A stretch of DNA of 24,000 nt from Clostridiales bacterium. Lineage in GTDB: Bacteria > Bacillota > Clostridia > DSM-8532. Positions 1 through 21,872 of the stretch are shown here, one piece after another. Where the stretch lies: the NCBI GenBank assembly GCA_036729925.1, contig DAIMRG010000040.1, positions 1 to 24,000 of the forward strand, given 5' to 3'. Both the position numbers and the translations under genes were made by a program. The first letter of the stretch is position 1. Each line of letters begins with the position of its first letter. The notes beneath the pieces were generated by a model. It saw only the letters and a list, made by a program, of their open reading frames with translations, ran no database searches and was not told the origin of the DNA.

Positions 1-149
1 GGATAAATAAGTATCTCTGCGTCAGGGCCGCGCCTTGGCGCATTTTTTTGACCGGGGAACGGCCGGGTTAGGCCACCCGATAGAACTCTGGGTGTTCACT
101 CCGGCAGTGCGTCATGGCGGGTTGCGGCCTGCCGCGGCCGCTCCCCTCC

Positions 150-281
150 CTGCTACACAAAGGCATAGACATTAGCATTATTTCAAAAAGGATGGGGCAT
201 TCCAGTATTAAAATGACTTATGCTACTTATTGCCCTGTACCGCCGGGCCAACAAGAGTTAGCAATGTCAGAGTCCAGCTAA
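150..281 (+). pseudogene. Tyrosine recombinase (integrase) C-terminal fragment
   Basis: The frame ending at TAA 279-281 reads LLHKGIDISIISKRMGHSSIKMTYATYCPV. This matches the conserved LGHSSIxxTxxxY(catalytic Tyr) tail of phage-type integrases. There is no start codon, and the upstream region (about 95-149) only continues weakly in another frame (FTPAVRH). It is too short for the ORF track. Confidence 0.5.
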
Positions 282-391: not shown

Positions 392-697
392 TTATGCAGC
401 TAACTTATATGTAGCCTTATATCGCTTTTCTTGTTCTTCTGGCGTGATGAATTCAAATGGTTTGCCGTGTTTTAAAACTGAATACACAATCCTTAACAGC
501 TTATTCATAACCGCGCCTAAAGCCTGCTTTTTTGCTTTCGTTTGAACCTTAGTCTGATAGTATGTATGTAAAATAGGGTTTACCAAAGTGCCCTTTGCAC
601 TTTGGCGAATGACAAGGGTAGCGGCATATATAATGCTTTTATTATGAATGCGTCCGAAATATGCACTTGCGATTTTAAGGCGTTTTAGCCAAAATTC
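392..697 (-). pseudogene. IS110-family transposase, C-terminal remnant
   Basis: The open frame from stop 698-700 down to 392 reads ...LKIASAYFGRIHNKSIIYAATLVIRQSAKGTLVNPILHTYYQTKVQTKAKKQALGAVMNKLLRIVYSVL... This resembles the IS110/IS116/IS902 C-terminal domain (laSYaGl...ISKrGn..lR...a..a.r..p.l..fY.....gk..KvAlvAvarKLl). It has no ATG, the listed start is TTG, and only about 100 of an expected 340 or more aa remain. Confidence 0.6.
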
Positions 698-791
698 TTA
701 TTCCTAAAAACATCACTCAAGTTGAAGCTATGAAGTTGGGGGATTTTGTAAAAACATTATATTTCGAATTCTCTTGCAAAAGGTAATGTCA

Positions 792-828
792 AAAAACCGT
801 CACATTGACTCAATTAATGACGGTTTTT
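792..828. terminator. Bidirectional intrinsic terminator downstream of the EVE-nuclease gene
   Basis: The stem aaaaaccgtca (792-802) pairs with tgacggttttt (818-828). A and T runs flank both sides, so a U-tract follows the hairpin on either strand. Confidence 0.6.
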
Positions 829-899
829 ATCTTACAATAATCAGGACATGCGCCGACAGCAGTTTTTGCAATACCTCTCTGTCCTGGTAAGTATTTATT

Positions 900-1877
900 T
901 TATATAGCCTGTAATTCTAATCTTCCGTTTGATTCAATAATATACTGTAAGAGTTTTATTTCTTTATCTTCAAAACGCTTGCGCTGTTTCACATATTCTA
1001 TTACATCAGTATCAAATCGTTTGGCTATGGCACTGACCCGTACCATATTCATGTCACCTTGGACTTTTTTATGAATAAACCACGATTCGTAACCCATCAA
1101 TTGACGGAGAGCTTTGTCATCAAAACGATCCAACTTCACTTCAATGATATCATAGGACATAGTTTGTTGAGCATTATGAGGATTCCCAAAAAATAAGAGA
1201 ATATCAATTTCTGTCCCCAAGTTGGTGGGAATATAACTCAGATAGTCAGTATAGTTTCCAAAAATATCTTGATATTGCCCTTTAACAAAAGCTTCTAACA
1301 ATATTGCCATTAGTGATGCTTCATAACGTGGAAATAGATTATCGAATTTATGTATTTTATCAAACAAATTAGCAGGCTTAACAGGGTATGGTTCCAATAT
1401 AACATTCCGGTTAACTGTAAAAGGATTAATCTTAAGATATTCCTGCAATATAATGTCAAACTCTAAATTGGAAATAGAAAACATAGCGTTGGTGCCACTT
1501 GCCCTATTAAGAGCAAAAGTCCAAATCTTACCGGAATTTCGTAGATCAAAAATATCATTCAACCGTAATGGTTTTTCAAAACTAAATTTCGTACTTTCCA
1601 ACCGAAAACGGAAAGGGTATATTTTCTCAGACCATACGGGAGTATCATCGTAAAACGGCTGTCCTACGGCTGTCCAAATTCCGCGTAATTCTTTTACGCC
1701 CGTTACATAAAACAGGATGTAATCGCCTTCACGAATAATGGCCATTCTTGAAAGCAAGGCATCGTTAGTTGCTTGCTCGTTTTTGGAACCCGAACTCGCT
1801 TCGGGAAGACCTACAATTCCTCTTCGTGTACAAGTATGATAATTCTCATCATCAAGTACAAAGATATGTGCTGGCAT
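900..1877 (-). CDS. EVE/PUA-like domain fused to a PD-(D/E)xK (NucS/DUF91-like) nuclease; candidate modification-dependent restriction enzyme
   Basis: 325-aa ORF with ATG preceded by ggggagaag. The N-terminal half has an EVE-like pattern (GDYILFYVTGVKELRGIWTAVGQPFYDDTPVW...YPFRFRLE...PLRLNDI). The C-terminal half has ordered nuclease motifs: E (RYEASL), D (TEIDILLF), ExK (DIIEVKLD) and QxxxY (RQLMGYESW). A terminator lies at 792-828. Confidence 0.6.
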   Translation of the reverse strand: MPAHIFVLDDENYHTCTRRGIVGLPEASSGSKNEQATNDALLSRMAIIREGDYILFYVTGVKELRGIWTAVGQPFYDDTPVWSEKIYPFRFRLESTKFSFEKPLRLNDIFDLRNSGKIWTFALNRASGTNAMFSISNLEFDIILQEYLKINPFTVNRNVILEPYPVKPANLFDKIHKFDNLFPRYEASLMAILLEAFVKGQYQDIFGNYTDYLSYIPTNLGTEIDILLFFGNPHNAQQTMSYDIIEVKLDRFDDKALRQLMGYESWFIHKKVQGDMNMVRVSAIAKRFDTDVIEYVKQRKRFEDKEIKLLQYIIESNGRLELQAI

Positions 1878-2307
1878 ATTCTTCTCCCCACTAGTAATAT
1901 GCGGTCAATTAATACTATTGTTCAACATCTCCCAGGAATATTATATAATAATTTTTAATTGACCTATACTACTATTACTCCGTTAATTTAATATTCAAAT
2001 TTAGGCAGATATTGAGCATTCTCATTCTAAAAAATCTTCTAAGGCATCTCCAGTGTCTAAACAGTTAAAATTATTTACAATTGCAACCACAGGAAAATCA
2101 ATCGATCACAATTTAAAGTTAGGAAAACGCTGATAATGACTTAGCATCGCAGAAATATGTAGTTTTGAAGTTTAAAAAGAATATATACAAATTGAATTTG
2201 GAGGCTTTTTGTTTCCTGAAACGTTACCCCAAAGCAAATGCACGAAGCTGGGATGATCGAATAAAGCTGACCTTTGACAGGCTTATCAAACAAAACATGA
2301 ACTGATC

Positions 2308-3018
2308 CTATTCCTCCATATGATCCAGCATCTGCTCATTCAGATTGTCCTTAACAGTCCGCCAGTTTGGGTAGAAGTTGTCCATGTACGCCCTAAAGAT
2401 GTCGTTGTGGCTTTTCTCCAACAAATGCACAAGTTCATGGATAACCACATATTCAAGAGATTCAGGCGTTTTCTTTGCCAATTGTAGATTAAGCCATATT
2501 CTTTTTGCTTTAACATTGCATGTACCCCATTTGGTACGCATGTTTTTTATTTGCCATTCACTTGCTTTTATCCCTACAAGTTTTTCAGATTTTTCAACTA
2601 CCGCGGGAATTGCATTTTTCAATATCTCACGATACCAATTATCCATGACATTGGCACGCTGCTGCGTGGTACTATCCCTGCGAACCTGAAGGATAATCTT
2701 CTGGCCGGAAACAGATACATCATTACGGATATTACTGTGTACCACATCTAAACGGTAACGCCTTCCCCATAGATAATGGCTTTCGCCGCTCATGTACTTG
2801 CGTTCGGTTTGCCTAGGTTGTTCAGCGAACTTTTGCCGCTGCTTTTTAATCCACACAATCCGCGATACGGCAAACATTCTGATTGCATCTTCCGTGGCCG
2901 ACAAGGGGGCAGTTATCCGAACCTTCCCATCAGGAGGAATCACCCTAATATACATATTTTTAATCAGTTTTTTTTCAGCGGTCATCTCAATTCCGTTAAC
3001 TGTTAAATTTATCATCAA
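2308..3018 (-). CDS. DUF45/YgjP-like HExxH zinc metallopeptidase (type I RM-associated)
   Basis: 236-aa ORF with the motif VVIHELVHLLEKSHNDIF (HExxH...H) near the C-terminus and the typical RMRTKWGTC segment. Its start overlaps the hsdR stop (3015-3018), which suggests translational coupling. Confidence 0.8.
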   Translation of the reverse strand: MMINLTVNGIEMTAEKKLIKNMYIRVIPPDGKVRITAPLSATEDAIRMFAVSRIVWIKKQRQKFAEQPRQTERKYMSGESHYLWGRRYRLDVVHSNIRNDVSVSGQKIILQVRRDSTTQQRANVMDNWYREILKNAIPAVVEKSEKLVGIKASEWQIKNMRTKWGTCNVKAKRIWLNLQLAKKTPESLEYVVIHELVHLLEKSHNDIFRAYMDNFYPNWRTVKDNLNEQMLDHMEE

Positions 3019-6000
3019 TATTCACTCTGCCCAATTACTATTTTCATAAGTTCTTTAGCCTTAACTTTATCACCATGCAGAACTGCTTCTACCGCACGCC
3101 GTATCTTACGTTCTTTCACAATATTCCCTCTAAAGCCATCTAACCGCGCATCAAGCACAGCGTTGTGTACGCTTATTGCAATTTCTTCATTACTATCCAG
3201 GTTATCAAAAAGCGCCCGCAGTGCCGCACTCGCCCTTATACTTTCAGGGTATCGTGATGTGCTTTCCGGTTTTCGGATGTCTTTCGCCAGCTCTACAATT
3301 TTCTTGAGGTATTCTTCGTAGTTAATAACCTCATTTTTTCGCTGCTCAATAATTTCTCGCAATAACGCCGACATCTTTTCATAGTATTTAGGATTGCTTT
3401 GTTGTTTTTCAACAATTTCTTTCTGTACATTGTTTTCAATGGTTTCGGCTACAGCTTCTTGCTCCTTCTTTGTTTTTGACGGCATATCTTTCACAGCGTC
3501 AACGCCGCACTCAACAAGAAGCTGCACCAGGGGAATATCGCCGAATGAAGACAATACTCTGCTTGGTTTTGCAGAAAGATAAGTATCTATCAAGTGCCTC
3601 ATATCGGGGTCATATCCCTTCAGATCGATATAATCACCGCTGGCCGCACGCACCACATCACGCACTTTAATGAAATACTGTACTTCTTGATCAAGGGCTT
3701 TAATTTGCTCAGAGGTATATGCATATCTTTCCTTTAATTCACCAGATACCTCTGAAAAAGAACGCATGACTGCAGCAGAGAGCTCATAGAGTTGTTCGCG
3801 TTTTGGCATGTTTTCTTCAAGCTCATCCAAATCAAATGCCTCAGAATTTTTTCCGCAAAAATAATGAATATAGTCAATATCTTCTTTTGGTATTGCGACC
3901 GGCTCACAAAGGGCACGCAGTGCCTCCAGGGCATCTTCTAATTGTTCTTTCGCCTTGTCAATGCGGTTGTTGAGCAGACCCGATACGTCTTCCTGATCAT
4001 AATTGTCAAAGGCTTCGGAGGTATAGTCCTCCACCGCTTTTTCAAGAGAACGGAACAAGTCTTTATAATCGATAATATAGCCGAAATCCTTGTCTTCGCC
4101 ATCCAAGCGATTGACGCGGCAAATTGCCTGAAACAGACCGTGGTCGCGCATGGATTTATCGATGTAGAGATAGGTCGTCGGTGGCGCATCAAAACCGGTC
4201 AGCAACTTATCCACCACAATGAGCAGTTTCATCTGGTCCGGCTGTTCAACAAACTTTTGTTTTACTTCCGCTTCAAAGGTATCCGCATCCTTGTCACCCA
4301 ACATCTTGCGATAGATTTCATATTGTTCGGCGGTTTCGGTTTCACCATCCTCGCCAACAGTTTCCGTTCTCAAATCGCTGGGATTGGGCGAATAGGATGT
4401 TACAATCGCACACTTCTTAAAACCGCTGTCCTGAAAAATCTCATAGTATTTGCAGGCTTGATAGATACTGCCAGCCACCAGCATGGCGTTGCCCCGCCCA
4501 TCCTCACGCAGGCGCGGTTTGGTTTCCATATCAAATATAATATCAGATGCAATGACGCCAAGTCGTGCTTTGGAACTAAATACTTTTTGTAAGTTTCAAA
4601 GCACGACTTGGCGTCATTACTAAATTCTTTTTGTAAGTTTCCCCATCGCTTTTTAAGCCGTGCTTTGGACACATCATTTAGCCCGCGCGTTTTCGACTCG
4701 AACCACGCATCAATTTTTTCCTGCGCAGCAACATCCTGCTCCACTTCGCGTGCCTCATAACGCAGATCAAGAACAACCTTATCCCGCACAGCCTCATCAA
4801 ACTTGTATTTATGGATATAAGGTCCGAAAATTTCCAGACTGGTCAACTTGTCTTTTTTCATCAACGGCGTGCCTGTAAAACCGATAAAGGTGGCACCCGG
4901 CAGGATGATGTTCATTGCTTTATGTAGCCGGCCGGATTGTGTGCGGTGGCACTCATCAACAAATACATAGAAATCGCCTTTGGGTGAAAAATTCTGCGGC
5001 AGCGCGCGCTTTATTTCCCCGATAAAACTCTCGTAGTCACGTTCAGATGCCTCGCCGCCTCGCCTGCCAAATTTATGAATCAGCGAGCACATTAGCGGTG
5101 GGGATGTATCATTGATTTTATTGACTAGATCACATCCACTTTTTGTGCGGACGATCTTTTCGTCCACACCCTTGTAAACCCGTTCGATTTGGGTGTCCAG
5201 CTCGTCGCGGTCGGTCACAACCAAAATCCGGCTGTCCGGTATGTTTTCTTTGACCCACCTACTGAGCCACACCATTGTAAGCGACTTGCCGGAGCCCTGC
5301 GTATGCCAAATAATACCGCCCTCACGCTGCCGGATATAATCCTGTGCTGCCTTGACACCAAAAAACTGGTTGGGGCGACAGGTCTTTTTCGTGCCGCTAT
5401 CGTAGACAATAAAATTATGTAAGATATCAACAAAACGCTCTTTGCTGCAAAGGGAAATCAGGTTTTTATCCAGTTTAATCGGGTATTCTTCATTTCGCTT
5501 TCGAATAGATACGGATGCCTCATCCGTCGCATTTTCATCTTCGCGCCATGAGAGAAAATATTTTTCGGGTGTATCGGTTACGCCGTACCGCATCCCTTCG
5601 GAGTCATTGCCTGCCATGATCAGGCCCACTGTGGCAAAAAACGGCAGGATAAACTCTTTGCGCTGGTTAGTGAGGTTTTGGCGTATCCCTTCGGACATGG
5701 ATACCGTGCTGCGTTTTAGTTCAATCACACCAAAGGCGATGCCGTTGATATAGAGCACTAAATCCGGGCGTTTTGATTGCTTGCCGGTATAGGTAACTTC
5801 CTCGGCTATGTAAAAATCATTCTCAAGGGGCTTGTCCCAATTGATAAAATGAACCGTGTTTGTATGCTGTCCAACACTTTCACTGACTTTTGCACCATAA
5901 CGAAGCAAGGCATAGGTGGCTTTGTTGAGATCGTACAGACTGACCTGCTGATTACCTGCTGTATTGAGAAGCACCCGGAGCGCTCTGTCGATTAGAATAT

Positions 6001-6163
6001 TGGAATATCCCTGTTTTTGTAAAAAACCGCGCAGATATTCCTGCTCGATGTTGGAGTTATCTGGACGGTTGGTAAAATCACCGAGATAAATATATCCCAG
6101 CTCATTCACAAAGAGTTTAATGATCCGCTCCTGTATCTTTTTCTCTCTTTCACCGACACTCAT
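3015..6163 (-). pseudogene. hsdR: Type I restriction enzyme R subunit (HsdR), split by a 44-bp frameshifting insertion
   Basis: - The upstream ORF (4400-6163) has the N-terminal PD-ExK nuclease motif (PDLVLYINGIAFGVIELKRS), helicase motif I (HTQGSGKSLTM) and motif II (VFVDECHRTQSG).
- The downstream ORF (3015-4529) starts inside the conserved ...DIIFDMETKPRLREDGRGNAMLVAGSIYQACKYYEIF segment and carries the helicase C-terminal half.
- Removing 44 nt leaves 3105 nt, which is 1035 codons, and brings the two frames into register. Confidence 0.85.
4551..4640. repeat. Quasi-palindromic duplication inside hsdR (22-bp inverted pair plus 22-bp direct pair)
   Basis: - aatgacgccaagtcgtgctttg (4551-4572) is the exact reverse complement of caaagcacgacttggcgtcatt (4597-4618).
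- actaaatactttttgtaagttt (4575-4596) is repeated as actaaattctttttgtaagttt (4619-4640), matching at 21 of 22 positions. Confidence 0.9.
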
Positions 6164-6194: not shown

Positions 6195-7943
6195 TTAACC
6201 AAAAAGCTCCCTACTTTCAACAATTGCTTGCCTGATTGCCTCGTCTGTAAAACAGTCCTTTTTCAGCTTTGATGCCCACTCCTTGTTGGAGCGGATCACT
6301 TCCTTAATGGAATCCAAGGATACCTCCTCGCCGGACTTATCCAGCTCACAAACAGCCACATCCACCGTGGCAAGAACTTCTAAATTGTTTTTCTCTTTGT
6401 ATGTGTTATAATACTTGAATTTTTCATACAGCCAATCGATATTCGATTGCATGCTTCCAACATACTTTAAAGCCTCGTCAATATTCGCGCCCCTGCCGAA
6501 TTTTGAACCTCTATCGCTGCTTTGCCGGACTATATACCTGTTCTTGAAAGCGATGGCCTCGCCTCCCTTGTAGCGAGCTGCCTCGTTATACGGCCCTGCC
6601 GCCTTTTTTTTAAAAGCGGACACATCAGCATGCTGCTTGCGGCGCAAGAGATAGAGAAGCTTTTGCACCTTCACACGCCCAAGCGGGAATTTGTCGTTAT
6701 AAAATGTATTGACGATAGCGGAAATAGCAATGGCATCATCATAATATTTGTTGTGGCCAGTTGACACGACTTTAGGCTTGGCAGCAGTTTTAGTCTGTAC
6801 GGTTGGCTCAACAAGCCGTATTCGCCCCGTGAGCAACTCCTGCAGAATGCCTTGCTTGATAAGACGATATTTAGCCCGCTTTTTCTCAAGCTGCTCGAGT
6901 TCGGCGTCCATATCAGAAAGAATGGCGGCGATGGCAGTTTGTTCTTGATAGTCTGGCAACTCCACTTCGATTTTTTCTATCAGATTAGCACTCAGGCTCG
7001 GAACACCAGACGCTTCATTGTATTGTAGCCAATCAATCATACAAAACAAATAATAGAGATATTTCGCATGGTATCCATTATTAACTTTAGTGTAGAACAG
7101 AGTATCAATTGTCCAAAATGGTGTATCCATATATTGTGGCTTATCTATTGTACCTTTTCTTCCAATTAACACCGTTGGTTTATTCCATATAAATTGATTT
7201 GTGCGCCCGATAATGCCACCAGTAGCAAGTATAGGATATTTTCCGGTTTCATCAACAACGCTATTTTGAGATTGACCGTGTCCTACAGACAACGCTCTGC
7301 CTAAAGGAGCAACACACCACTCCCCACTAAACCCCGGCAAGCGTCTTTTCCCTGTGAGCAGTCCCTGCATCGCCCCCTGCTTTATAGCCTTTTTCTTCGC
7401 AATTAGCTTTTCCAGGGAGATAATCAGGCTGTCAACATCGGTAAGGGCTTCGGCAATAGCTGCTTGTTCATCTTTTTCAGGCAAGGGAATCTCGATTGCT
7501 GATAATTGACGTCCATTTGTTAGAGCACGCGTGGTATAAGTGCATCCTGCCATTATAGACCTGCGTACATCTGGTGTTGAAAAACAGTATTTACAGTAAT
7601 TAATATCAAATAAATCGGTTGTTGGACGCGCACGTAGAACAAAACCACTAAATACGCACTCACCAATATTATCCAGCATAACACTTGCATAGCCAACTTC
7701 TTCTGGCGTTTCAGATGTACGAGTAAAAAAAACATCTCCTTTTTTAACATCAAACCTTCTAATCTCATGTTTCGATAAAGAAACTCGACCTTTAAGCTGA
7801 CTTGCATGTATGCCGTTTCTACGATAGACATCCATATAATTTACAATAGGTATTCCATATCCAAAAAAGGATTTGCCTTTATTTAATCCATTTTTAAATT
7901 CAAAGCATTTACCAATTTTAACAACAGGCCACTTTTTCACCAC
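6195..7943 (-). CDS. hsdS: Type I RM specificity subunit (HsdS) with a roughly 200-aa C-terminal extension
   Basis: 582-aa ORF. Two variable target-recognition regions are separated by the two conserved coiled-coil repeats: EQAAIAEALTDVDSLIISLEKLIAKKKAIKQGAMQGLLTGKRRL and EQTAIAAILSDMDAELEQLEKKRAKYRLIKQGILQELLTGRIRLV. A normal HsdS ends at that point, but this one continues for about 204 aa. It overlaps hsdM by 7 nt. Confidence 0.85.
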   Translation of the reverse strand: MVKKWPVVKIGKCFEFKNGLNKGKSFFGYGIPIVNYMDVYRRNGIHASQLKGRVSLSKHEIRRFDVKKGDVFFTRTSETPEEVGYASVMLDNIGECVFSGFVLRARPTTDLFDINYCKYCFSTPDVRRSIMAGCTYTTRALTNGRQLSAIEIPLPEKDEQAAIAEALTDVDSLIISLEKLIAKKKAIKQGAMQGLLTGKRRLPGFSGEWCVAPLGRALSVGHGQSQNSVVDETGKYPILATGGIIGRTNQFIWNKPTVLIGRKGTIDKPQYMDTPFWTIDTLFYTKVNNGYHAKYLYYLFCMIDWLQYNEASGVPSLSANLIEKIEVELPDYQEQTAIAAILSDMDAELEQLEKKRAKYRLIKQGILQELLTGRIRLVEPTVQTKTAAKPKVVSTGHNKYYDDAIAISAIVNTFYNDKFPLGRVKVQKLLYLLRRKQHADVSAFKKKAAGPYNEAARYKGGEAIAFKNRYIVRQSSDRGSKFGRGANIDEALKYVGSMQSNIDWLYEKFKYYNTYKEKNNLEVLATVDVAVCELDKSGEEVSLDSIKEVIRSNKEWASKLKKDCFTDEAIRQAIVESRELFG

Positions 7944-10417
7944 ACAAACCCCATCCTTTTTAAATGAGATTTGACCTTGCTTTCCAGCTCTGCAACTACC
8001 GCCTCACATTCAGGCAGGGTAAACTCATATCGATCCACCAGTTCAGAAACGCGGGAAGAAAGCCGGTGCGAAACAGAAGAATGAATGGTATCAATTCCAT
8101 TATAAATCGCATGAAACCACTTTTCCTCCACCAGAAGCTGTTTAATTTCCGCATCGGTCAGTTGCTCGTATTTTTCCCTGGCCGCCATGTCTAACATAGC
8201 GTTGAATTCCTTAATCAGCTTCTTGGCATCCGACTCAATCCCTGAAAGGCGCAGGTATTCCTGCAAAACCTCAATCTCCGCCGCACTGTCGGCATCGTTT
8301 GTAATCGACATTATACGAACCTTAATTGTGGCAGCTTTCATATCGTCTAAAGATGAAAAACATCCATCGTCACCGCTGTTTTCTTCCACCAATTCTTCAA
8401 GCTGTGCCGAGATGCCGTCAAGTTCTCCCTGATACTTTTGCAGCGCTTTCAGTTCGTCGAGATAAAAGTGTTCAATTAGCAAGGATTTCGGGATGATTTC
8501 ACCGTCATAGCTTTTGACCCTGTCGGTCTTTTCCTCGACCGTCGTGCCGTTGACTTTTTTCTTTTTCGTCACATACGCATAAACAATTTTACGGCCAATG
8601 CCATAACCTTCAAAACAGACGGCATATACATCGTCCTGCATGGTCTCTGCCCAATACTCCATTAGTTTTTGGTAGACATCGTATTTATCAATCAATGGAA
8701 CATCAGAAAATGCCGTAAGAAGCGCTTCCGACAGTTCATGGATAATCGCTTTCGGGTCATCCCCCTTGCAGAGGTTCATCAGTTTGGAAGTAACCTGCTC
8801 TTTCCAGGCCGTATAAGCACGGTCTACCATATTGGCATGATAAATAAACTCAGGATGAGAGGTAATTGTGCCAACCACATCATCTTTTAAGATTACCGAC
8901 TGGAAATAACCATCGCGCAAAGGCTTGAAAAGCATTTCCTTCATAAAAGGGTACACTTCCCAATATTCAGCCATGCTGTCTATATCGGCGGCCGGAACGC
9001 CACCGTTCAAATGGGCGTTGATATCCTGTAAATCCTCCGGCTCACTGCTGTCAATGTAGCGGGGAATGTTCAGGTTGTATTCGTTGGTTATTTTTATTTC
9101 ATCATTGGGAATAAAGCGCGAGTACTTTTCTATCTGTATCTGGTTATTGAACACCGTAACGATTTTATGAATATCCTGCTCACGCAGGCGATTTTTATTG
9201 CCATCCTTAACGAACTCTTTGGAAGCGTTGATTACAAAGATGCCCTGGCGTTCGGCAGCATCTTCCTTGTCGATTACGATGATGCATGCGGGAATACCCG
9301 TTCCAAAAAACAGGTTGGCGGTCAGACCGATAATGCCCTTGATATACCCACGGTCAACAATTTCCTTACGGATATCCGCCTCTGCGTTACCGCGAAACAG
9401 TACGCCATGTGGCAAAATAATGGCTGCTTTTCCCGTTGATTTTAGGGAGCGCAACACGTGCAGGAACCAAGCATAATCGCCGTTTTTTTCCGGCGGCACC
9501 TTGTATCCGTCGAATCGTCCATAAAGTTCCGTGGCATTATCGCCTTTGACGGTGATGTTCATTCCATCCATCCAAGACTTGTCCGAGAACGGCGGATTCA
9601 TGACGATATAGTCGAAGGTTTTGAGAAGATTGGGATTGCGTTCATCCTTAAACTGCGGGTTAGCAAGAGTGCTTTTGTTGCCTGCCACTTCTGCCGCCGC
9701 CATATTGTGCAAAACAAAATTCATACGGGCAAGACCGGCTGTTTCCTTCGTTTTCTCCTGCCCAAAGATAGCCACATTCGGCGTGCCGTCTGATTTTTTA
9801 GGAGCGGCATCCGCTGCGCGGATTAGTAGCGAGCCCGAGCCGCATGCCGGATCGTAAAGCGTTTTATCTGAGCCGGTTGCCTTGTCAATCCCGATAACCT
9901 GCGCCATGATGCGAGAAACCTCTCCAGGTGTATAAAACTGTCCTTTGCTTTTACCCGACTCCACCGCAAAGTTTTTCATCAAGTATTCGTATGCGTCACC
10001 AAGGATATCATCGCCACCGGCACGGTTGTATGTAAAATCAAGTTCCGGCTTCTGAAAAATCTCAATTAAACCGGAAAGCTTGTCCACGGCCTCTTTATCA
10101 GTGCCAAGTTCCTCGCTGTTAAAGTCAGCAATATCAATGATGCCTTTTAGCTCGTTAGCATCAGCCAGCGCGCCAATAATAACATTGATTCCTTCACCAA
10201 TGTTCTTCGTTCCTTTGAGTTTAATAATATCATCAAAACTTCCGCCTTGCGGGACTTCTATATCCCACGCGTCATTACTTTTGAAACGATCAGAGACATA
10301 TTTCACGAACAGCAAAGTCAATATATAGTCTTTATATCGCGCCGGTTCTACACCTCCGCGCAGTTTATCACATGCAGCCCAAATTTGGTTGTAAATTTCA
10401 CTTTTCTTAATGGCCAT
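7937..10417 (-). CDS. hsdM: Type I RM N6-adenine DNA methyltransferase subunit (HsdM), long form
   Basis: 826-aa ORF. It has the HsdM N-terminal domain (IWAACDKLRGGVEPARYKDYILTLLFVKYVSDRF), SAM motif I (LYDPACGSGSLL) and catalytic motif IV (IVMNPPFSDKSW). A long helical C-terminal region follows. Confidence 0.9.
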   Translation of the reverse strand: MAIKKSEIYNQIWAACDKLRGGVEPARYKDYILTLLFVKYVSDRFKSNDAWDIEVPQGGSFDDIIKLKGTKNIGEGINVIIGALADANELKGIIDIADFNSEELGTDKEAVDKLSGLIEIFQKPELDFTYNRAGGDDILGDAYEYLMKNFAVESGKSKGQFYTPGEVSRIMAQVIGIDKATGSDKTLYDPACGSGSLLIRAADAAPKKSDGTPNVAIFGQEKTKETAGLARMNFVLHNMAAAEVAGNKSTLANPQFKDERNPNLLKTFDYIVMNPPFSDKSWMDGMNITVKGDNATELYGRFDGYKVPPEKNGDYAWFLHVLRSLKSTGKAAIILPHGVLFRGNAEADIRKEIVDRGYIKGIIGLTANLFFGTGIPACIIVIDKEDAAERQGIFVINASKEFVKDGNKNRLREQDIHKIVTVFNNQIQIEKYSRFIPNDEIKITNEYNLNIPRYIDSSEPEDLQDINAHLNGGVPAADIDSMAEYWEVYPFMKEMLFKPLRDGYFQSVILKDDVVGTITSHPEFIYHANMVDRAYTAWKEQVTSKLMNLCKGDDPKAIIHELSEALLTAFSDVPLIDKYDVYQKLMEYWAETMQDDVYAVCFEGYGIGRKIVYAYVTKKKKVNGTTVEEKTDRVKSYDGEIIPKSLLIEHFYLDELKALQKYQGELDGISAQLEELVEENSGDDGCFSSLDDMKAATIKVRIMSITNDADSAAEIEVLQEYLRLSGIESDAKKLIKEFNAMLDMAAREKYEQLTDAEIKQLLVEEKWFHAIYNGIDTIHSSVSHRLSSRVSELVDRYEFTLPECEAVVAELESKVKSHLKRMGFVW

Positions 10418-10422
10418 AACTG

Positions 10423-10662
10423 TTAGTTTACTCCTCTGCCTTTTTCTTGAAGCATGGCTTCAGCCTCTATGCCATGCTGCTCACAAAAGGCAAAGAATAC
10501 CGACTTTGCCATCTTGTTCGGGTGGGTTTTGCCGTTTTCCCACCTGTTAATTGTCGTAAAACTTATTTTTAAGGCATGCGCCATTTCTTCTTGGCTCATG
10601 CCCAATTTATCGCGTGCATATTTCACAACTGAAGGAAAATCCATCGGCTTCACCTCACGCAC
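10423..10662 (-). CDS. XRE-family HTH protein, likely controller of the RM operon
   Basis: HTH_3 pattern: LGMSQEEMAHALKISFTTINRWENGKTHP. It sits 5 nt upstream of hsdM. The listed start at 10662 is GTG. ATG at 10644 with gaggtg 6 nt upstream is the more likely start, giving 73 aa. Confidence 0.75.
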   Translation of the reverse strand: MREVKPMDFPSVVKYARDKLGMSQEEMAHALKISFTTINRWENGKTHPNKMAKSVFFAFCEQHGIEAEAMLQEKGRGVN

Positions 10663-11236: not shown

Positions 11237-11311
11237 TGGAGCGGGTGACGAGATTCGAACTCGCGACCCACGGCTTGGGAAGCCGGTACTCTACCACTGA
11301 GCTACACCCGC
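11237..11311 (-). tRNA. tRNA-Gly (anticodon CCC), CCA encoded
   Basis: The reverse complement is GCGGGTGTAGCTCAGTGGTAGAGTACCGGCTTCCCAAGCCGTGGGTCGCGAGTTCGAATCTCGTCACCCGCTCCA. It folds as a cloverleaf: a 7-bp acceptor stem, a D arm (GCTC/GAGT), an anticodon loop TTCCCAA and a T arm (GCGAG-TTCGAAT-CTCGT). Confidence 0.9.
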
Positions 11312-11642: not shown

Positions 11643-12281
11643 ATGTCGATTGAAGCACAGGATAAGCCAAAAGTACAACAAATCTACGTTCCAGCAGCGA
11701 AAGTGGAAATGTTTAATAGGGCTAAAGAAATCTTTAACGAGTCGTTATCTGCCGTGATTGTAAATCATTTAAGTGAATTGGTGGAAAAACGAGAAGCCGA
11801 ACTCATTGGAATGTCAGAACATATCATTGAGATAGGAACTTGGCCACCAAACTATTATAAGTACGGGCAAAAGAATAGCCGAAAAAGATTCTTTGGTAAG
11901 TTGATTCATAAAGCAGATAAAACCCTTTCTGCAGGAACAAATGCTTTTGCTGTTGACTATGCCATCTACGCCACAAAAGGTAATAACTTTCTATTGTATT
12001 ATCATATCCACTATCTCGGAATAGGTGGAAATATGGAAGAGAGTACATACTCAGCCGCTGACTACAAGGTCGTCAAATTTTTGTTCGACGAGGAAAAGCA
12101 AGCCATTAACGAAGATATCCTAGAAGTTGACTGGAGCAATCTGACAGGCATCCCATCATATTATGAGTCCGGAAATTCTATGCCAATTTCATTCCCAAAA
12201 AAAATGACGGTTCCTTTACAATTCTTAGAAGAGGCTTTAGATATATTGGATAAAGTTCCCATTGAGGATTTAGATATCTAA
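11643..12281 (+). CDS. Hypothetical protein, EXLDI-family-like (C-terminus ...PIEDLDI)
   Basis: 212-aa ORF. The N-terminus (IYVPAAKVEMFNRAKEIFNESLSAVIVNHLSELVEKRE) and the terminal E-x-L-D-I match my recollection of the uncharacterised EXLDI protein family. I could not run a search. Confidence 0.5.
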   Translation: MSIEAQDKPKVQQIYVPAAKVEMFNRAKEIFNESLSAVIVNHLSELVEKREAELIGMSEHIIEIGTWPPNYYKYGQKNSRKRFFGKLIHKADKTLSAGTNAFAVDYAIYATKGNNFLLYYHIHYLGIGGNMEESTYSAADYKVVKFLFDEEKQAINEDILEVDWSNLTGIPSYYESGNSMPISFPKKMTVPLQFLEEALDILDKVPIEDLDI

Positions 12282-12781: not shown

Positions 12782-13765
12782 TTAATCCTGGATTATAATC
12801 AAATCACTGTATTCACTCATAGAACCTATTTCTATTTCAACGGGTTCTAATTTTTCAACGGGTTTAAATGGTATAAATACTATTCTATATTCAAGTTGAT
12901 ACCAAAAATCAAATAACTTAGTTCCAAAGACATTCAACGGTCCCGGCGGAGGATTAAGCGGGTCTATATATAATATTGGAACCCCAAATCCATGACCTTT
13001 TAGTGTCAAAATTCTTCTTACCGATTCAACCACGTCACTCACAAACCGTTCTGGATTTCGTACAACAAGACAAGCATTGCTCTTAAAATCTCGGAATAAT
13101 CTCACGTCAGCCTCTTTTGCCATACAGTAAAGATAATAGTCTGATGAAGACTTTAAACATAGCCTTATATTTCCAATAGGCTTTAGTGGTGTTTTTTGTT
13201 CATCCTGTATAATTCTCACTCTATTAGGATGCAAAGCCAACTCCCGCCTTAGTTCATCATCTCGTTGGGCCTTATTCAAACTACTGTCTGTATACGCTGA
13301 TGCAGGTTTTATCAATATTGTCCCATTTCGATACATTTTAGCAAGATGTTCTTTATCTCCATACTTAACAAAATAGGGAGCGCGGGGAAAGGTTATCGTT
13401 TTCATTTTGCTAATTACGGTTTCAATATTGGGAAAAGAAATTAACTTTCCTAAATCCTGTGCAATTTCTGGCGGAGGAAACTGGCTTCCCTTTAAGGAAA
13501 GTTCCGTTTGTATTTCAGTAATAATTGGCGACCAGAACTTACTCCTTTCATCTGGTAATCTTAAAGAAATTTTGCCGTCTTGGTTTATCGTAATAAAGTT
13601 ATACAAAACATTTAAGCACCGCTGAAATAGTTCTTCCTTGGGTAAATACTCCATATATCTATCATTCAGATAATTCATTCGCCATAAATCTGAATTTCTA
13701 ATTTTTTGCATAAACATTCCCCCGTAACCAAAAGGTTTAAATCTACTTAATCTTATATCAGCCAT
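12782..13765 (-). CDS. Hypothetical protein, DUF2971-like pattern
   Basis: 327-aa ORF. Several segments recall DUF2971-type proteins by eye: YFVKYGDKEHLAKMYRNGTILIKPASAYTD...RDDEL, YYLYCMAKEADVRLFRDF and FGTKLFDFWYQLEYRIVF. A better start may be ATG 13717 or 13711, preceded by gggggaa. Confidence 0.45.
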   Translation of the reverse strand: MADIRLSRFKPFGYGGMFMQKIRNSDLWRMNYLNDRYMEYLPKEELFQRCLNVLYNFITINQDGKISLRLPDERSKFWSPIITEIQTELSLKGSQFPPPEIAQDLGKLISFPNIETVISKMKTITFPRAPYFVKYGDKEHLAKMYRNGTILIKPASAYTDSSLNKAQRDDELRRELALHPNRVRIIQDEQKTPLKPIGNIRLCLKSSSDYYLYCMAKEADVRLFRDFKSNACLVVRNPERFVSDVVESVRRILTLKGHGFGVPILYIDPLNPPPGPLNVFGTKLFDFWYQLEYRIVFIPFKPVEKLEPVEIEIGSMSEYSDLIIIQD

Positions 13766-14784: not shown

Positions 14785-15204
14785 TTACGCATGAATTTTT
14801 TTTTCATCGTAGGTGGCACAATGCTGTTTAAAGGCTTCTTTAAATTGGATTTTGGCCCAGCCGCGCAGGTCCGGGTCACCACTTTCCATCAATTCTTTTA
14901 ATATATCAATCATCATTTTTAAGTCGGGGTCGAAAACGGCCTCGACTTTTTGTGTTGAATCCTGCCCTTTTCCTGTAAGTATCCAATCAATCGAATAATC
15001 AAATTTTTGATTAATAGCTTTTAAAGCAAGTGCGCCAGGCAATGATTTTCCTGTTTCCCAAGTACCAACATTCCCTTGAGAAATACCAAGTGCTTTAGCA
15101 AAGTTAGCCTGTGAAAGGCCAGCCTTTTTTCTTATCGCTTTTAGCCTTTCTGCAATCGCTTGTATCTCATGAGATTCTTGAGAATCCTGCATGGGAATCA
15201 TCAC
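14785..15204 (-). CDS. cI-like XRE-family repressor with a C-terminal helical domain
   Basis: 139-aa ORF with the HTH LSQANFAKALGISQGNVGTWETGKSLP. It is transcribed divergently from the Ner-like gene. Confidence 0.75.
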   Translation of the reverse strand: MMIPMQDSQESHEIQAIAERLKAIRKKAGLSQANFAKALGISQGNVGTWETGKSLPGALALKAINQKFDYSIDWILTGKGQDSTQKVEAVFDPDLKMMIDILKELMESGDPDLRGWAKIQFKEAFKQHCATYDEKKIHA

Positions 15205-16268: not shown

Positions 16269-17141
16269 ATGGATGTTGAGAAACACAGTAACGAACATAT
16301 TCTGGGATATGTAACGCATAATGTATTCGACAAGTTTGGAAGATTGCTGCTGGCGGAAGGTACGCCCCTTTACCCACAGGTTGTTCAAAAACTGGAAGAA
16401 AGAAGGATTGTTTTTCGGATTTCAGTAGAACCACTGGGGAATAGTGCCGCTATGCCTGATTCTCTGCAAATCGAGAATTCAAAACTATTTAGCGTACCCC
16501 AAAAATTAGATAAGAAATTTGAAAGATTGAATGGCGAAAGCATTAGCATTGCAGCGAAGTATATGAACTGGATTTTACGTCAAATACAAGAGGACATATT
16601 TTTAAGCAATAACATAAAAATACTCGCCCAGAGCCATAAAGCAAATTATTCCCACTCTATTAATGTTTCCTTAATCGCTGTTACCATAGCCCGAAAACTT
16701 AAATATGATAAATCCTCGCTGCATGAAATTGCTCTTGGTTCCCTATATCACGATATTGGGAAGATACTATTGCCTAAATCCGTGTTGGATGATATTACAG
16801 GCGTGCGTGATGAACAGACATTAATTTATCAGCAGCATACCGTGCTGGGAAGCGACTTATTAGCTGCGGATAAGCTGCCTGCCAATGTCTACTTAATTGC
16901 CCGGCAGCATCATGAAAAGTGTTCCGGAAATGGATACCCGAACGGACTTAAGGAAAATGAAATTCACCTCAATGTAGCCGTTGTCACGGTTGCGGACGTA
17001 TTTGATCGATTAACCTCATCTATTTTTAAACGGGATGTTCTTTCCCCTGATGAGGCAATTAACCAAATATTACTTGCAAAAGGCATTGACTATCATCCTC
17101 AGGTTGTCGATATGTTTGTCGAGTTATTTAATAAGGAATAG
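16269..17141 (+). CDS. HD-GYP domain protein (c-di-GMP phosphodiesterase family)
   Basis: 290-aa ORF with RBS agaggaga. Motifs: HSINVS, LYHDIGK and RQHHEKCSGNGYPNGL (HHExxxGxGYP). Confidence 0.85.
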   Translation: MDVEKHSNEHILGYVTHNVFDKFGRLLLAEGTPLYPQVVQKLEERRIVFRISVEPLGNSAAMPDSLQIENSKLFSVPQKLDKKFERLNGESISIAAKYMNWILRQIQEDIFLSNNIKILAQSHKANYSHSINVSLIAVTIARKLKYDKSSLHEIALGSLYHDIGKILLPKSVLDDITGVRDEQTLIYQQHTVLGSDLLAADKLPANVYLIARQHHEKCSGNGYPNGLKENEIHLNVAVVTVADVFDRLTSSIFKRDVLSPDEAINQILLAKGIDYHPQVVDMFVELFNKE

Positions 17142-17970: not shown

Positions 17971-18528
17971 ATGGAAGAATACGAAATTGGCAGATTGTTG
18001 AGAAGTATATCCTATCAGCATTGGGTAACCAAGGAGCTTTTCTCCCTTGGCTGGTTTGTTATTCTTGGTGTACTTGCCGGCGTTTACGCCGTATGGCTGA
18101 AATTGCTCGATAAAAGCAGAGTTAGAGATATATTGCTTTTTGGTTCGCTAAGCAGTATTGGTTTTATGCTGGCCGATGTGATTTTCGGCAATTATTTAGG
18201 CTTTATTTCCCACGGCATAGACCTTTTCCCCCTTGAACCCTCTTTTTTCATTGTAAGCATTACGGTCTCACCGGTATTGTTTATGCTGGTTTATCAATAC
18301 ACCTCTTCATGGCGAAGCTACACAATATGGCTTATTATCTGTACCACCGCGTTGTCTTTTGGTTTGGCGCCCTTATATATGAACCTGGGTATTTTGGAAT
18401 ACCACAGAGGCTGGAATCATTTCTTTACTTTTCTGCGGTCGGTCACGGACGGACTGATCGCGAGGGCTATTGTTCTTTGGTTCGCCAGCATAGAGCAAAG
18501 TCAGCCTGCTTCCAAGCGGGTATCGTAA
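17971..18528 (+). CDS. Multi-pass membrane protein (CBO0543-like family)
   Basis: 185-aa ORF with RBS gggagg and 4-5 hydrophobic segments. It is a paralogue of the decayed gene at 20141-20576. Confidence 0.65.
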   Translation: MEEYEIGRLLRSISYQHWVTKELFSLGWFVILGVLAGVYAVWLKLLDKSRVRDILLFGSLSSIGFMLADVIFGNYLGFISHGIDLFPLEPSFFIVSITVSPVLFMLVYQYTSSWRSYTIWLIICTTALSFGLAPLYMNLGILEYHRGWNHFFTFLRSVTDGLIARAIVLWFASIEQSQPASKRVS

Positions 18529-18655
18529 AGGTTTTTCGATGTACAGCCGGCGTCAGCCAAACCCCTTGATTATGATAAGGGCGATAAGTCGGATAATGGT
18601 CAATAAGATACGCAACAATGAAGGCATGTATTTACCCCGGAAGGGCTGTAATGTA

Positions 18656-18708
18656 AAACGAAAAGCCATGGGTCAGGACGCGGTTAGCCTGCTCATGGCT
18701 TTTCGTTT
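18656..18708. terminator. Bidirectional terminator between convergent genes
   Basis: The 15-bp stem aaacgaaaagccatg (18656-18670) pairs with catggcttttcgttt (18694-18708). An overlapping alternative hairpin is cctgctcat (18688-18696) with atgagcagg (18710-18718). Confidence 0.6.
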
Positions 18709-18754
18709 ATGAGCAGGGGGACGATTATCCTCCGCTCACGATTTTTTTAATTGA

Positions 18755-19330
18755 TCATTGAGGCCTAATTGATGAGTTGTCACCCTTTTTTAAGACTAGT
18801 TCATGCAAGTCCTGCGCGGGCAAAAGCAAATTTGTGTCTTCCGCCACTTTGGCCGTAAATTTAGTGCCCGGTGGTATAGCCACCTGCTCTCCCGTAATAT
18901 ACCCCGCATATAAGCCGAATAACACTACGGGAAACAGCATTTTATGCCCGTCGCCTTTCTGCGAGAAGTCGAAGGCAATGGGTATTTTAACATCGTTTAC
19001 GGACCACGTGCATGCCGCTTTGATCTTAATACCCCCGCCTTTCCCCCACGGGCCCGCCCGTTTAATATCGGTAACATAGGCCAGCGCGGTTGCCCCCTTT
19101 TGAATAACCAAAGTTCCGTCCACCCGCACGTCCTCCCGGACTTTCAAAATCAGCATATCGCCCACTCTGCTTCTCTTGGAATGAACAGGCGTAGATAAGT
19201 CCAAGGCGATGTCCGTACCCGCGGGGAGGACAACGGTCTCCGGGTTTTCCCCGGTGTCCGCATTTGCCCAAACTGACGCCGGGAAAACAAGTATTAGGAA
19301 ACACCAGGCCATAACCGCAAACTTTCTCAT
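18755..19330 (-). CDS. Secreted hypothetical protein
   Basis: 191-aa ORF with a signal peptide MRKFAVMAWCFLILVFPASVWA/NA. I recognised no family. Confidence 0.6.
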   Translation of the reverse strand: MRKFAVMAWCFLILVFPASVWANADTGENPETVVLPAGTDIALDLSTPVHSKRSRVGDMLILKVREDVRVDGTLVIQKGATALAYVTDIKRAGPWGKGGGIKIKAACTWSVNDVKIPIAFDFSQKGDGHKMLFPVVLFGLYAGYITGEQVAIPPGTKFTAKVAEDTNLLLPAQDLHELVLKKGDNSSIRPQ

Positions 19331-19372
19331 AAACCACCCCGGATAAAAAGCCAGCGTACGCTGGCTCTTTCA

Positions 19373-20014
19373 TTAAAACGAAAACTTGGCAAAGCCATCA
19401 TCCATCGCTCTTTCCATTCCCTCGACGATCGCTCCGCCCATGCCGCCAACGCCGATGAGCACCGCTTTGTTGACACCCAGGCCGATGGACTGATAGCTGC
19501 TGTATTTATTCGCGCCTGTTTCATATGTACGGAATCTTAATTTAACCTCACTTTTGGCGGAAGTGGAAAACAAGCTGCTGCTGCGGTGATTATTAATCAG
19601 GACGATTTCCATCGCGACCACGGCATCTGCTTCCGTATATTTCGCCACGTTAACCACGGTTTCTTTATCGACTAATTCCATCATCTTGGGATCATAGCCG
19701 CTTTTCGCCAATGCTTCAGCAACACTGGTGTCAGGTACGACAACATAATTTTTGTCATTAAACCTTGCATCAAACTTTTTCTTGACCGTCTCCATGACGA
19801 AATCACGTGTCTCCGTGGTGGAATTAACAAAGGGGACAATTGCCACTTTCATAGGTTTTGCTGCCGGTTCCGTTACAGGTTCTGTTATTGATTCCGTTGC
19901 CGGTGCTGCTATTACAGGTTCTGTTCCAGGTGTTGTGCCGGGTTCTGCGCATACCATGACCGTAAATACCAAAAACATTAAAAAGACCATTAGACTGAAT
20001 GAGACCCTTTTCAT
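19373..20014 (-). CDS. Secreted hypothetical protein with a Pro/Thr/Glu-rich linker
   Basis: 213-aa ORF with RBS aagggg, a signal peptide and a repetitive TEPV/TPGTEP linker. A domain starting KVAIVPFVNST follows. Confidence 0.6.
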   Translation of the reverse strand: MKRVSFSLMVFLMFLVFTVMVCAEPGTTPGTEPVIAAPATESITEPVTEPAAKPMKVAIVPFVNSTTETRDFVMETVKKKFDARFNDKNYVVVPDTSVAEALAKSGYDPKMMELVDKETVVNVAKYTEADAVVAMEIVLINNHRSSSLFSTSAKSEVKLRFRTYETGANKYSSYQSIGLGVNKAVLIGVGGMGGAIVEGMERAMDDGFAKFSF

Positions 20015-20140
20015 TAAGACACCCCTTTATATATGTGTATTTTGTATCATATTAATCTTTGACAATCATTGCCAAATTCCTTCCATTATTTTCACATTTA
20101 GCAAATAAAAGTCGATTCCCGCTTTAAGTTTTGCGTTCCC

Positions 20141-20576
20141 TCATTTAACGCCCTCCTGCCACATTTGAAAAACATACAGCACTGCGGCGATAACAGATTC
20201 AAATATAAATACGATCAGCCCAGCATTATAGTCAATTATGCCCCGGCTTGCAAACCAGGGTAAAACAAGGTAGGCAAATACCAGATTGGCAACGGTATCT
20301 ACCAGGGCATACAACCAAAAACGTCCGTAGGTATATTTTAAAATCCATACCGGGGCGGTGGGGAAAAATCCGTAGACATAGCTTGAAAATATGGCCAGGG
20401 GATAAGTCGTTTCCAGAAACCGCCACCACCTGTTCGCAACTCCGATTTCAGACGAGTAGGCTCAAAAAAAATGCCAGCAAGCCCGTAGATATATATCGTT
20501 TAGCATCCTTAGGAATAAAAAGCAGGCTGACCCACGGTATAATTAAAGCGGCCCATAATAGCACTTGATTACTCAC
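20141..20576 (-). pseudogene. CBO0543-like membrane protein, frameshifted
   Basis: GTG 20576 with RBS ggagg gives MSNQVLLWAALIIPWVSLLFIPKDAKRYISTGLLAFFLSLLV*. The +1 frame then continues SSEIGVANRWWRFLETTYPLAIFSSYVYGFFPTAPVWILKYTYGRFWLYALVDTVANLVFAYLVLPWFASRGIIDYNAGLIVFIFESVIAAVLYVFQMWQEGVK* with its stop at 20141. It is collinear with the 17971 paralogue. The shift lies at about 20448-20465. Confidence 0.5.
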
Positions 20577-20646
20577 AGTAAGACCTCCGATAGTTTGAAT
20601 AATGCATAGTCTTTCTATGAAAAGGAGATCTAATACCATGCCGGGC

Positions 20647-20696
20647 GCACAAAAAAAGAAGGCCTTCCCCCATGAAAAGGCCTTCTTTTTCTGTGC
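20647..20696. terminator. Bidirectional intrinsic terminator
   Basis: gcacaaaaaaagaaggcc pairs (imperfectly) with aggccttctttttctgtgc. A and T runs sit within both arms. Confidence 0.65.
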
Positions 20697-21284
20697 CTTA
20701 TACTACGCTGTGCGCTGTTATTTATTCACATCTTAAATTGTAAATCGTTAAGCTTTACGGTAAAAAGCTGCTTCTGGCCCGGTACTGCCACCCGGCAGTG
20801 GCGTTCATCGAGGAGGAGAAAATTACTATCAACTACGCCGGAGTATATGACCCCGGAATTCCAGTGCGTAAAGCTCACGGCCCTGCGGTTTATCTCCTGG
20901 TCCTCCCCTTCTCTGAATAAGTCTTCCTTTAGTTTCTCTACGGGCTTTAGGTAGTTGTTATTTAAAACACTTTCCCTTTTCTTAAAGATAGCCTATTCCC
21001 CCTTTCAACGGTCTGAAGATATATTATTTTCAGTGACGCGGAAATTATGCGATTATGCTTACCGTTCTTTTATCATGAGATGTTGCCCCCACATACATCG
21101 TTATTTCTTTCTGTGACACCTTTACGGTATGATCATTGATAATCTTGTATTCCACCACCACGTCATACTTCCATGCTTTATATCCTTCATAATATTTTTA
21201 CAATTTTGCTGAAAGTTGTAAATTCGTGGTTATAATAATAGGAGAGACTACATTTTTCCAGAATCTGCGCGGGAGTTGATCAAG

Positions 21285-21872
21285 ATGCTTTTTCGGCTGG
21301 CATTATTATTATGCTGTTTTACCCTGTTGGCGGGCTGTGGCAGCCCCGCCGCCAAACAGGAGGCAACGGCTTTACCGCTGCAGGCGGCAAAGGAACCCGC
21401 CCTTGGCGCCGGCGCAGTTGAGATTATCCCGCCGGTAAATACCTTTAGCCAGTGGTGCGATTATTGGCTTCCCTTTGTCGCCGAATACAACGGCGCGCTG
21501 GTGGAAATCGAAACCGTCTCCCGGGAATTGACGCTACGGCATAATCCCGCCGGGGCCCGCCCGCGGATAGCGGGCATCACCGCGAAATTAAACCGGGCGG
21601 AAACCCTGTTCCGCCAACTGCCGCCGGTCAGCGGGTTGACGAAGGAGCATCGCGGCTTATGGGAACAAAACACCGTTAAGGCCCGCACCGTGCTGACCGT
21701 CGCGCAGGAAATCCCGCCGCTGCTGTCCGCATTGGCCGAGCATCCTGAAGACACGGAAACCGCCCGGGTGCTGTCCGCTAAAATTAAGACGGCAAATGAA
21801 ATCGCCCTTTGTCAGGAAAATATCCTTAAAATACGTGATAATCTTCTGAAAAACAACGCCGGCGCAAAATAA
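21285..21872 (+). CDS. Lipoprotein, function unknown
   Basis: The lipobox LLAGC follows a hydrophobic leader (MLFRLALLLCCFTLLAGCGS). ATG 21285 has gggag 9 nt upstream. The track start at 21276 is TTG. Confidence 0.7.
   Translation: MLFRLALLLCCFTLLAGCGSPAAKQEATALPLQAAKEPALGAGAVEIIPPVNTFSQWCDYWLPFVAEYNGALVEIETVSRELTLRHNPAGARPRIAGITAKLNRAETLFRQLPPVSGLTKEHRGLWEQNTVKARTVLTVAQEIPPLLSALAEHPEDTETARVLSAKIKTANEIALCQENILKIRDNLLKNNAGAK

Follow-up and report, generated by a model that had tools for sequence, protein, structure and literature searches.

An EVE domain joined to a NucS-like nuclease domain beside a type I restriction-modification operon of a Clostridiales bacterium: a candidate modification-dependent restriction endonuclease

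Single-chain nucleases with a base-reading domain

EVE-HNH enzymes restrict phage carrying 5-hydroxymethylcytosine (5hmC), and one of them, VcaM4I, restricts phage T4gt (PMC6765204, PMC7897488). In VcaM4I an EVE domain (residues 1-147) is followed by a linker (148-178) and an HNH nuclease domain (179-309); the EVE domain flips 5-methylcytosine (5mC) or 5hmC into a hydrophobic pocket, the nuclease domains mediate dimerisation of the protein, and the linker keeps the nuclease autoinhibited (PMC7897488). VcaM4I is the closest experimentally understood analogue of the protein described here, which joins an EVE domain to a NucS-like PD-(D/E)xK nuclease domain. Its gene lies at positions 900-1877 of a stretch of 24,000 nucleotides (nt) from a Clostridiales bacterium (GenBank assembly GCA_036729925.1, contig DAIMRG010000040.1, positions 1 to 24,000 of the forward strand), hereafter called the window. 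With a probability of roughly two in three, we infer that the gene product is a single-polypeptide, modification-dependent (type IV) restriction endonuclease that works independently of nucleoside triphosphates, a reading consistent with the defence-island context and with published precedent.

The likeness to VcaM4I and TspA15I, both EVE-HNH enzymes, extends to the proportions of the chain, whose EVE domain, linker and nuclease measure about 150, about 30 and about 130-140 amino acids (aa), respectively, and probably to the lack of a methyltransferase of their own. However, the nuclease is HNH in those enzymes and NucS-like PD-(D/E)xK here, and VcaM4I has an EVE subgroup of its own whereas the EVE domain here is of the archaeal UPF0310/PH1033 type. 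The MspJI family and YenY4I also place a reader of the PUA superfamily before a C-terminal PD-(D/E)xK nuclease, and YenY4I prefers DNA with 5mC or 5hmC (PMC6765204). MspJI differs in its SRA-like reader, and YenY4I in an extra DUF3427 domain, a DUF3883-type nuclease and a size of about 600 aa. END-Mag couples a NucS-like PD-DExK nuclease to an inactive EndoIII/Ogg1-like sensor and restricts phages with modified guanine (PMC12191111). It is a precedent for single-chain, modification-dependent defence in which a NucS-like nuclease is the effector, but its sensor is helix-hairpin-helix glycosylase-like instead of PUA/EVE. NucS/EndoMS, the archaeal and actinobacterial mismatch endonuclease, shares the C-terminal catalytic fold with its D...ExK...QxxxY motifs; in our protein EVE takes the place of its N-terminal domain for dimerisation and mismatch binding, and its role is in repair whereas the genomic context here is one of defence. 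Finally, Shedu type 1E proteins have the same order of sensor, linker and NucS-related nuclease and were proposed as a type IV equivalent, but carry DUF4263.

In a 2020 survey, Bell, Wolf and Koonin had listed fusions of EVE with PD(D/E)XK nucleases among putative type IV restriction endonucleases (PMC7641849). Their set has the same core architecture and predicted role as our protein; the work, a computational one, names no tested member. An earlier reading of the window, made from the letters alone (the sequence-only reading), had suggested that this two-domain architecture may not have been characterised experimentally. Our literature search agrees in that it found no tested member, although the class itself is that of the 2020 catalogue. 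EVE-HNH, SRA-PD-(D/E)xK and EVE-DUF3427-PD-(D/E)xK are neighbouring architectures with tested enzymes. Since the architecture is catalogued and its sister architectures are tested, the protein adds a member and not a new class; it is a good candidate for characterisation, and unsurprising to a specialist. If confirmed, it would be the first characterised member of a compact (325 aa) EVE-PD-(D/E)xK type IV family from anaerobic Firmicutes, and would provide a data point on how archaeal UPF0310-type EVE readers recognise modified DNA. It could also become a new modification-dependent endonuclease for epigenetic mapping, like MspJI and AbaSI. Furthermore, it would be another case of modification-dependent enzymes layered behind type I restriction-modification (RM), BREX, Gabija and Wadjet systems in defence islands.

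An EVE domain and a NucS-type nuclease domain in one protein

The Pfam EVE family (PF01878) matches residues 45-145 of the 325-aa protein with 23.9 bits (E=4.4e-5), a marginal score against a gathering cut-off of 23 bits. Among 50 diverse relatives, EVE was matched in 25 (best E=1.1e-9) and the related DCD domain in four. When the whole protein was compared with the PDB by phmmer, only a weak match to MJECL36 was obtained, and a whole-protein profile did marginally better; the solved relatives emerge with separate domain profiles, so that splitting the protein into its domains was needed. A profile of residues 1-155 (A5), built from 22 diverse members, aligned end to end with PH1033 (1wmm, E=1.1e-19 over residues 1-150) and MJECL36 (2p5d, E=4e-16). 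In agreement, Foldseek with the AlphaFold2 model of the protein (predicted local distance difference test score, pLDDT, 90.7; predicted template modelling score, pTM, 0.88) retrieved, in order, PH1033, MJECL36, the EVE domain of VcaM4I, a Leishmania EVE protein, YTH domains and 2eve; the top structures were 1wmm, 2p5d, 2hd9, 6yex (VcaM4I, E=1.4e-4), 2ar1, YTH structures and 2eve. G66 is invariant in 50 homologues at 19-55% identity. Among the distant homologues, G51, D52, P88, R90 and W119 are each conserved in 39-47 of 50, and positions 57, 68, 75 and 87 are mostly aromatic. This conservation is consistent with a conserved putative ligand pocket.

The linker that follows is conserved as well, with N151 in 42 and P163 in 32 of the 50 distant homologues. 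Its position corresponds to that of the helical linker of VcaM4I (PMC7897488), and it may conceivably be autoinhibitory.

The C-terminal catalytic domain is of the NucS-type PD-(D/E)xK kind. A separate model of residues 166-325 (pLDDT 93.1) was compared with the PDB by Foldseek, and its best matches were EndoMS (5gke, E=6.8e-5, template modelling score 0.53) and NucS (2vld, E=8.8e-5), followed by the FokI cleavage domain, R.BspD6I, AF1548, the Avs3 nuclease, SfsA and MspJI (4f0q). The model has the canonical alpha-beta-beta-beta-alpha-beta core, in which E186 starts helix 1, D225 lies in strand 2, the ExK motif at the end of strand 3 and QxxxY in helix 2. In a hidden Markov model (HMM) alignment, the domain profile aligns weakly and in exact register, placing E246/K248 on E179/K181 of EndoMS and E174/K176 of NucS, and Q259/Y263 on Q192/Y196 and Q187/Y191, respectively. 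E186, D225, E246 and Y263 are present in all 50 homologues at 19-55% identity, K248 in 45 and Q259 in 37. The protein nevertheless stands outside the NucS family, because its EVE domain takes the place of the NucS N-terminal domain.

Both domain assignments of the sequence-only reading are therefore borne out: an EVE-type region in the first 150 or so residues by the above-cut-off Pfam match, the profile match to PH1033 and the fold matches, and a NucS-type nuclease in the last 140 or so by the best-matching folds, the register of ExK and QxxxY and the invariant catalytic residues. The motifs on which it relied are found in the translation, EGDYILFYV (50-58), RGIWTAVG (65-72), FYDDTPVW (75-82) and KPLRLNDIF (102-110) on the EVE side and TEIDILLF...YDIIEVKLDRFDDKALRQLMGYESWF (222-267) in the nuclease. 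It had also asked whether the N-terminal region has a PUA-like fold, which the retrieval of PH1033, MJECL36 and the VcaM4I EVE domain by the model supports, and whether the nuclease motifs are placed as in an active site; in the model they sit on the canonical core elements of a PD-(D/E)xK fold. A modification reader fused to a nuclease with conserved catalytic residues is the architecture of a type IV enzyme, and it is the one found here.

On this basis we propose a mechanism in which the EVE domain would bind DNA and flip a modified base into its putative conserved, aromatic-lined pocket, and capture of the base would position or de-repress the nuclease domain. The latter, probably as a dimer, would then cut nearby DNA in a metal-dependent manner through D225, E246 and K248, with E186, Q259 and Y263 assisting catalysis. 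By analogy, cytosine modifications would be the default candidate mark. The enzyme, which probably has no methyltransferase of its own, would end defence operons as a second layer, and its targets would be phages that evade type I RM or BREX through modification of their DNA. We consider it unlikely that the EVE domain reads a non-cytosine mark, be it the N6-methyladenine (m6A) state written by a type I or BREX neighbour or a hypermodified purine or thymine; in that case the protein would either act as a third, functionally coupled part of adenine-methylating defence systems or represent a type IV enzyme of novel specificity.

Distribution, genomic context and competing explanations

Homologues of the protein form 223 clusters at 90% identity. 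An exhaustive profile search of 50%-identity representatives returned 297 sequences at E<=1e-3, 130 at E<=1e-10 and 42 at E<=1e-30. Full-length representatives measure about 320-400 aa, a few about 480 aa, and nearly all span both halves of the query; the two-domain architecture is thus conserved across the family. A pattern search of one genome per GTDB species (185,579 species representatives) found 41 loci, almost all in metagenome-assembled Clostridia (Syntrophomonadaceae, Oscillospiraceae, Lachnospiraceae, Ruminococcus), the exceptions being one Prevotella and one cyanobacterium. Some gut Clostridia have split or truncated copies (L044 9959-10971, L045 10046-10429 and L047 6466-7104), which indicates recurrent loss of function. 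Patchy occurrence, decayed copies and an island context are what is expected of an accessory defence gene. A phage or plasmid origin was considered and dropped, as tblastn of the protein gave no match in 50,697 phage or 72,556 plasmid records.

Some of the distant members (P0187, P0197, P0216, P0223 and P0228 of alignment A2) are longer, at about 480 aa, with some 150 additional residues at the C-terminus. Weak matches to the PADLOC candidate system PDC-S02 (best E=6e-6) and to a type II restriction endonuclease model were obtained for several distant members; the protein of the window matches neither of these two models, and an NCBIfam scan of it returned nothing useful.

The close clade, defined as the 12 distinct loci with a protein sharing 65% or more identity with that of the window, is found in defence or mobile surroundings at 10 loci. 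At six of the 12 the gene lies immediately 3' of a type I RM operon, and these operons are of at least three kinds, differing in gene order and family: M-S-R-YgjP (the window and L016), R-M-S-M78 peptidase (L005, L054 and L013) and M-x-S-R (L019/L056). Elsewhere it follows BREX PglX-PglZ-BrxL (L007/L018) or an Eco57I-like RM system and a Gabija-like pair (L015), comes after Wadjet JetABCD and before a methyltransferase-Schlafen gene (L057), or stands between an insertion sequence (IS) element and an nSTAND3 NTPase gene (L017/L055). At the two remaining loci (L009 and L014) it is placed among housekeeping genes. An N6-adenine methyltransferase gene, belonging to type I, BREX or Eco57I-like systems, is located upstream on the same strand at seven of the 12 loci.

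Several points weigh against the reading as a modification-dependent endonuclease. The sequence-only reading had named the EVE and NucS profiles as a check, and only the first half of this expectation holds: PF01878 is matched, but the 325-aa protein has no match to any Pfam nuclease family and none to NucS_C (PF01939) even at E<=10. The 50 relatives give weak matches only, to NucS_C in two (best E=4e-4), to YhcG_C in three and to HSDR_N_2 in one. PADLOC does not recognise the 325-aa protein, and no characterised member of the Clostridia EVE-NucS-like family was found in the literature. In distant relatives (<=61% identity) the three upstream neighbours are mostly housekeeping or other non-defence genes; a bulk scan, which covered upstream genes, gave 87 neighbours from 31 species loci, of which only three each match the type I RM families (N6_Mtase, three of 87). 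Also, several EVE and YTH domains bind RNA. Additionally, the close clade adjoins adenine methyltransferases, and reading m6A would bring a problem of self-toxicity.

Of the competing explanations, the one that fares best, although we regard it as unlikely, is a Shedu-like immune nuclease, in which a sequence-nonspecific NucS-like domain would stay inactive in an oligomer until the EVE sensor detects a sign of infection and frees it; this signal could be something other than a modified base within the DNA being cut. A Shedu census describes a 'Type 1E' with a PUA, EVE or SRA N-terminal domain and a NucS-related nuclease (bioRxiv 10.1101/2023.08.10.552793), in which sensor, linker and nuclease follow one another from the N- to the C-terminus as they do here, and the pTM of our full-length model suggests tightly packed domains. 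However, Pfam and PADLOC gave no DUF4263/Shedu match in the 325-aa protein at E<=10 or in 50 diverse relatives at E<=0.01, and the top 50 Foldseek matches of the nuclease domain, led by EndoMS/NucS, include no Shedu structure. As DUF4263 is matched neither in the protein nor in the 50 relatives, membership of Shedu was rejected at the sequence level.

The adenine methyltransferase genes upstream of seven close-clade loci could also mean that the protein serves adenine-methylating systems (type I RM or BREX) as an accessory, its EVE domain reading the m6A mark of the neighbour, or the absence of that mark, and gating the nuclease. YTH relatives do bind m6A, and stand-alone archaeal EVE proteins of the UPF0310 type were reported beside type I RM systems (PMC7641849). 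We nevertheless hold this to be improbable. Many family members have no methyltransferase nearby, the heterogeneous partners (several kinds of type I, BREX, Wadjet, Gabija) fit co-location in islands better than a dedicated partner, and in the window the gene stands 430 nt apart with expression signals of its own.

Marginally less probable still is an RNA-directed effector, in which EVE would recognise a modified base of transfer, ribosomal or phage RNA and the nuclease would cut RNA, with an abortive-infection or toxin-like outcome. EVE, PUA and YTH domains were first viewed as binding RNA (PMC6765204), RNA was the predicted target of type IV-like systems with an EVE domain (PMC11090510), and the fold matches include Card1 and Can2, which cut both single-stranded RNA and single-stranded DNA. 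On the other hand, for the one EVE-nuclease that has been characterised structurally, the ligand is modified DNA (PMC7897488). The nearest nuclease folds (EndoMS/NucS, FokI, BspD6I, MspJI) are double-stranded DNA enzymes, and a conserved antitoxin-like partner is absent.

We give the least weight to a housekeeping DNA-repair nuclease in which EVE, in place of the NucS N-terminal domain, would recognise base damage or mismatches. In its favour, the nuclease domain most resembles EndoMS/NucS, a mismatch endonuclease that likewise flips bases into its N-terminal domain, and distant clade members lie among housekeeping genes. Against it, the NucS N-terminal domain is absent here, the distribution is patchy (the 41 loci of the pattern search), pseudogenised copies exist and the close clade is strongly tied to defence and mobile elements.

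The gene and its surroundings in the window

The protein (P0001) has identical copies on nine public contigs, and the window is 100% identical to ENA contig ERZ724026 NODE_1048 across 11.4 kb. The sequence-only reading described the gene as a monocistron with its own ribosome-binding site and terminator. Both signals are present (Table 1); a simple terminator scan did not detect the hairpin at 791-829 because its loop exceeds the limit of the scan. The gene is separated by 430 nt from the preceding YgjP-like gene, and its own transcript is therefore plausible in the window. No Rfam match was obtained in this gap, the tRNA being the sole Rfam find. As a trait of the family, however, monocistronic status does not hold, because in relatives the gap to the preceding gene is just 10-50 nt.

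Table 1. Features of the EVE-nuclease gene and its surroundings; positions refer to the window unless another locus is named
Feature	Position	Strand	Details	Basis
EVE-linker-nuclease gene	900..1877	-	ATG start, 325 aa; stop codon 900-902	Open reading frame (ORF) listing
EVE (PUA-like) domain, UPF0310/PH1033 type	1428..1877	-	Residues 1-150; putative flipped-base reader	Pfam, profile, Foldseek
Conserved inter-domain linker	1323..1427	-	Residues 151-185; NPF...EPYPV	
PD-(D/E)xK nuclease domain, NucS/EndoMS-like	903..1322	-	Residues 186-325	Model, Foldseek, HMM alignment
Catalytic codons	1320-1322; 1203-1205; 1140-1142	-	E186; D225; E246	
Catalytic codons, continued	1134-1136; 1101-1103; 1089-1091	-	K248; Q259; Y263	
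Shine-Dalgarno sequence	1883-1889	-	GGGGAGA, 6 nt 5' of the ATG of the EVE-nuclease gene	Direct sequence reading
Terminator-like hairpin	791..829	-	ACCGUCA...UGACGGU then U6, about 70-110 nt past the stop of the EVE-nuclease gene	RNA fold
YgjP-like metallopeptidase gene	2308..3018	-	Last gene of the type I RM operon	Pfam PF01863, E=9.5e-60
hsdR, in two ORFs	4400-6163 and 3015-4529	-	Whole: 3015..6163	Pfam, comparison with L001
hsdS	6195-7943	-		Pfam Methylase_S
hsdM	7937-10417	-		Pfam N6_Mtase, HsdM_N
Small helix-turn-helix (HTH; XRE-like) gene	10423-10662	-	Directly 5' of hsdM	HTH_19/HTH_3 in identical contigs
tRNA-Gly	11237-11311	-	Opposite end of the RM/EVE block	Rfam
Tyrosine recombinase C-terminus-like remnant	114-281	+		Pfam Phage_integrase, E=5e-4, below cut-off
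Orphan fragment beside recombinase remnant	392-586	-	No family match	
Intervening metallopeptidase gene, L005	7226-7990			
Intervening metallopeptidase gene, L054	7217-7990			
Intervening metallopeptidase gene, L016	9223-9951			

The EVE-nuclease gene shares its strand with the preceding controller-like gene, hsdM, hsdS, the hsdR pieces and the YgjP-like gene. The product of the small HTH gene resembles an RM controller (C) protein. A metallopeptidase gene (YgjP-like or M78/ImmA-like) recurrently separates the type I RM genes from the EVE-nuclease gene, as in the window and the three loci listed in Table 1; in L005 and L054 it ends just 10 nt from the latter.

The adjacent type I system had been taken as broken. 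In the window hsdR is indeed split: compared with a 99.9%-identical contig (L001), it contains 44 additional nt near 4575-4641. The insertion carries an imperfect 23-nt repeat (4575-4597 and 4619-4641, spaced by 44 nt); it was found by BLAST against L001 and a direct-repeat search, and Tandem Repeats Finder did not report it. However, hsdR is intact in L001 (1034 aa), so the system is broken in this strain or assembly only. The suggestion that the EVE-nuclease gene might replace the type I system is thus unwarranted. Genuine strain variation and an assembly error are both possible origins of the insertion, which could act as an on/off switch of restriction.

The block of RM and EVE-nuclease genes is bounded by the recombinase remnant on one side and tRNA-Gly on the other, which suggests a decayed integrated island; a direct-repeat search found no flanking repeats of at least 16 nt around it. 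Beyond the tRNA, ORFs of 100-330 aa with no Pfam match are found at 11643-12281 (+) and 12782-13765 (-), with eight more within 17971-22891. These may be further mobile or defence cargo, and the run adjoins an XRE-type HTH gene (14785-15204) and an HD-domain gene (16269-17141).

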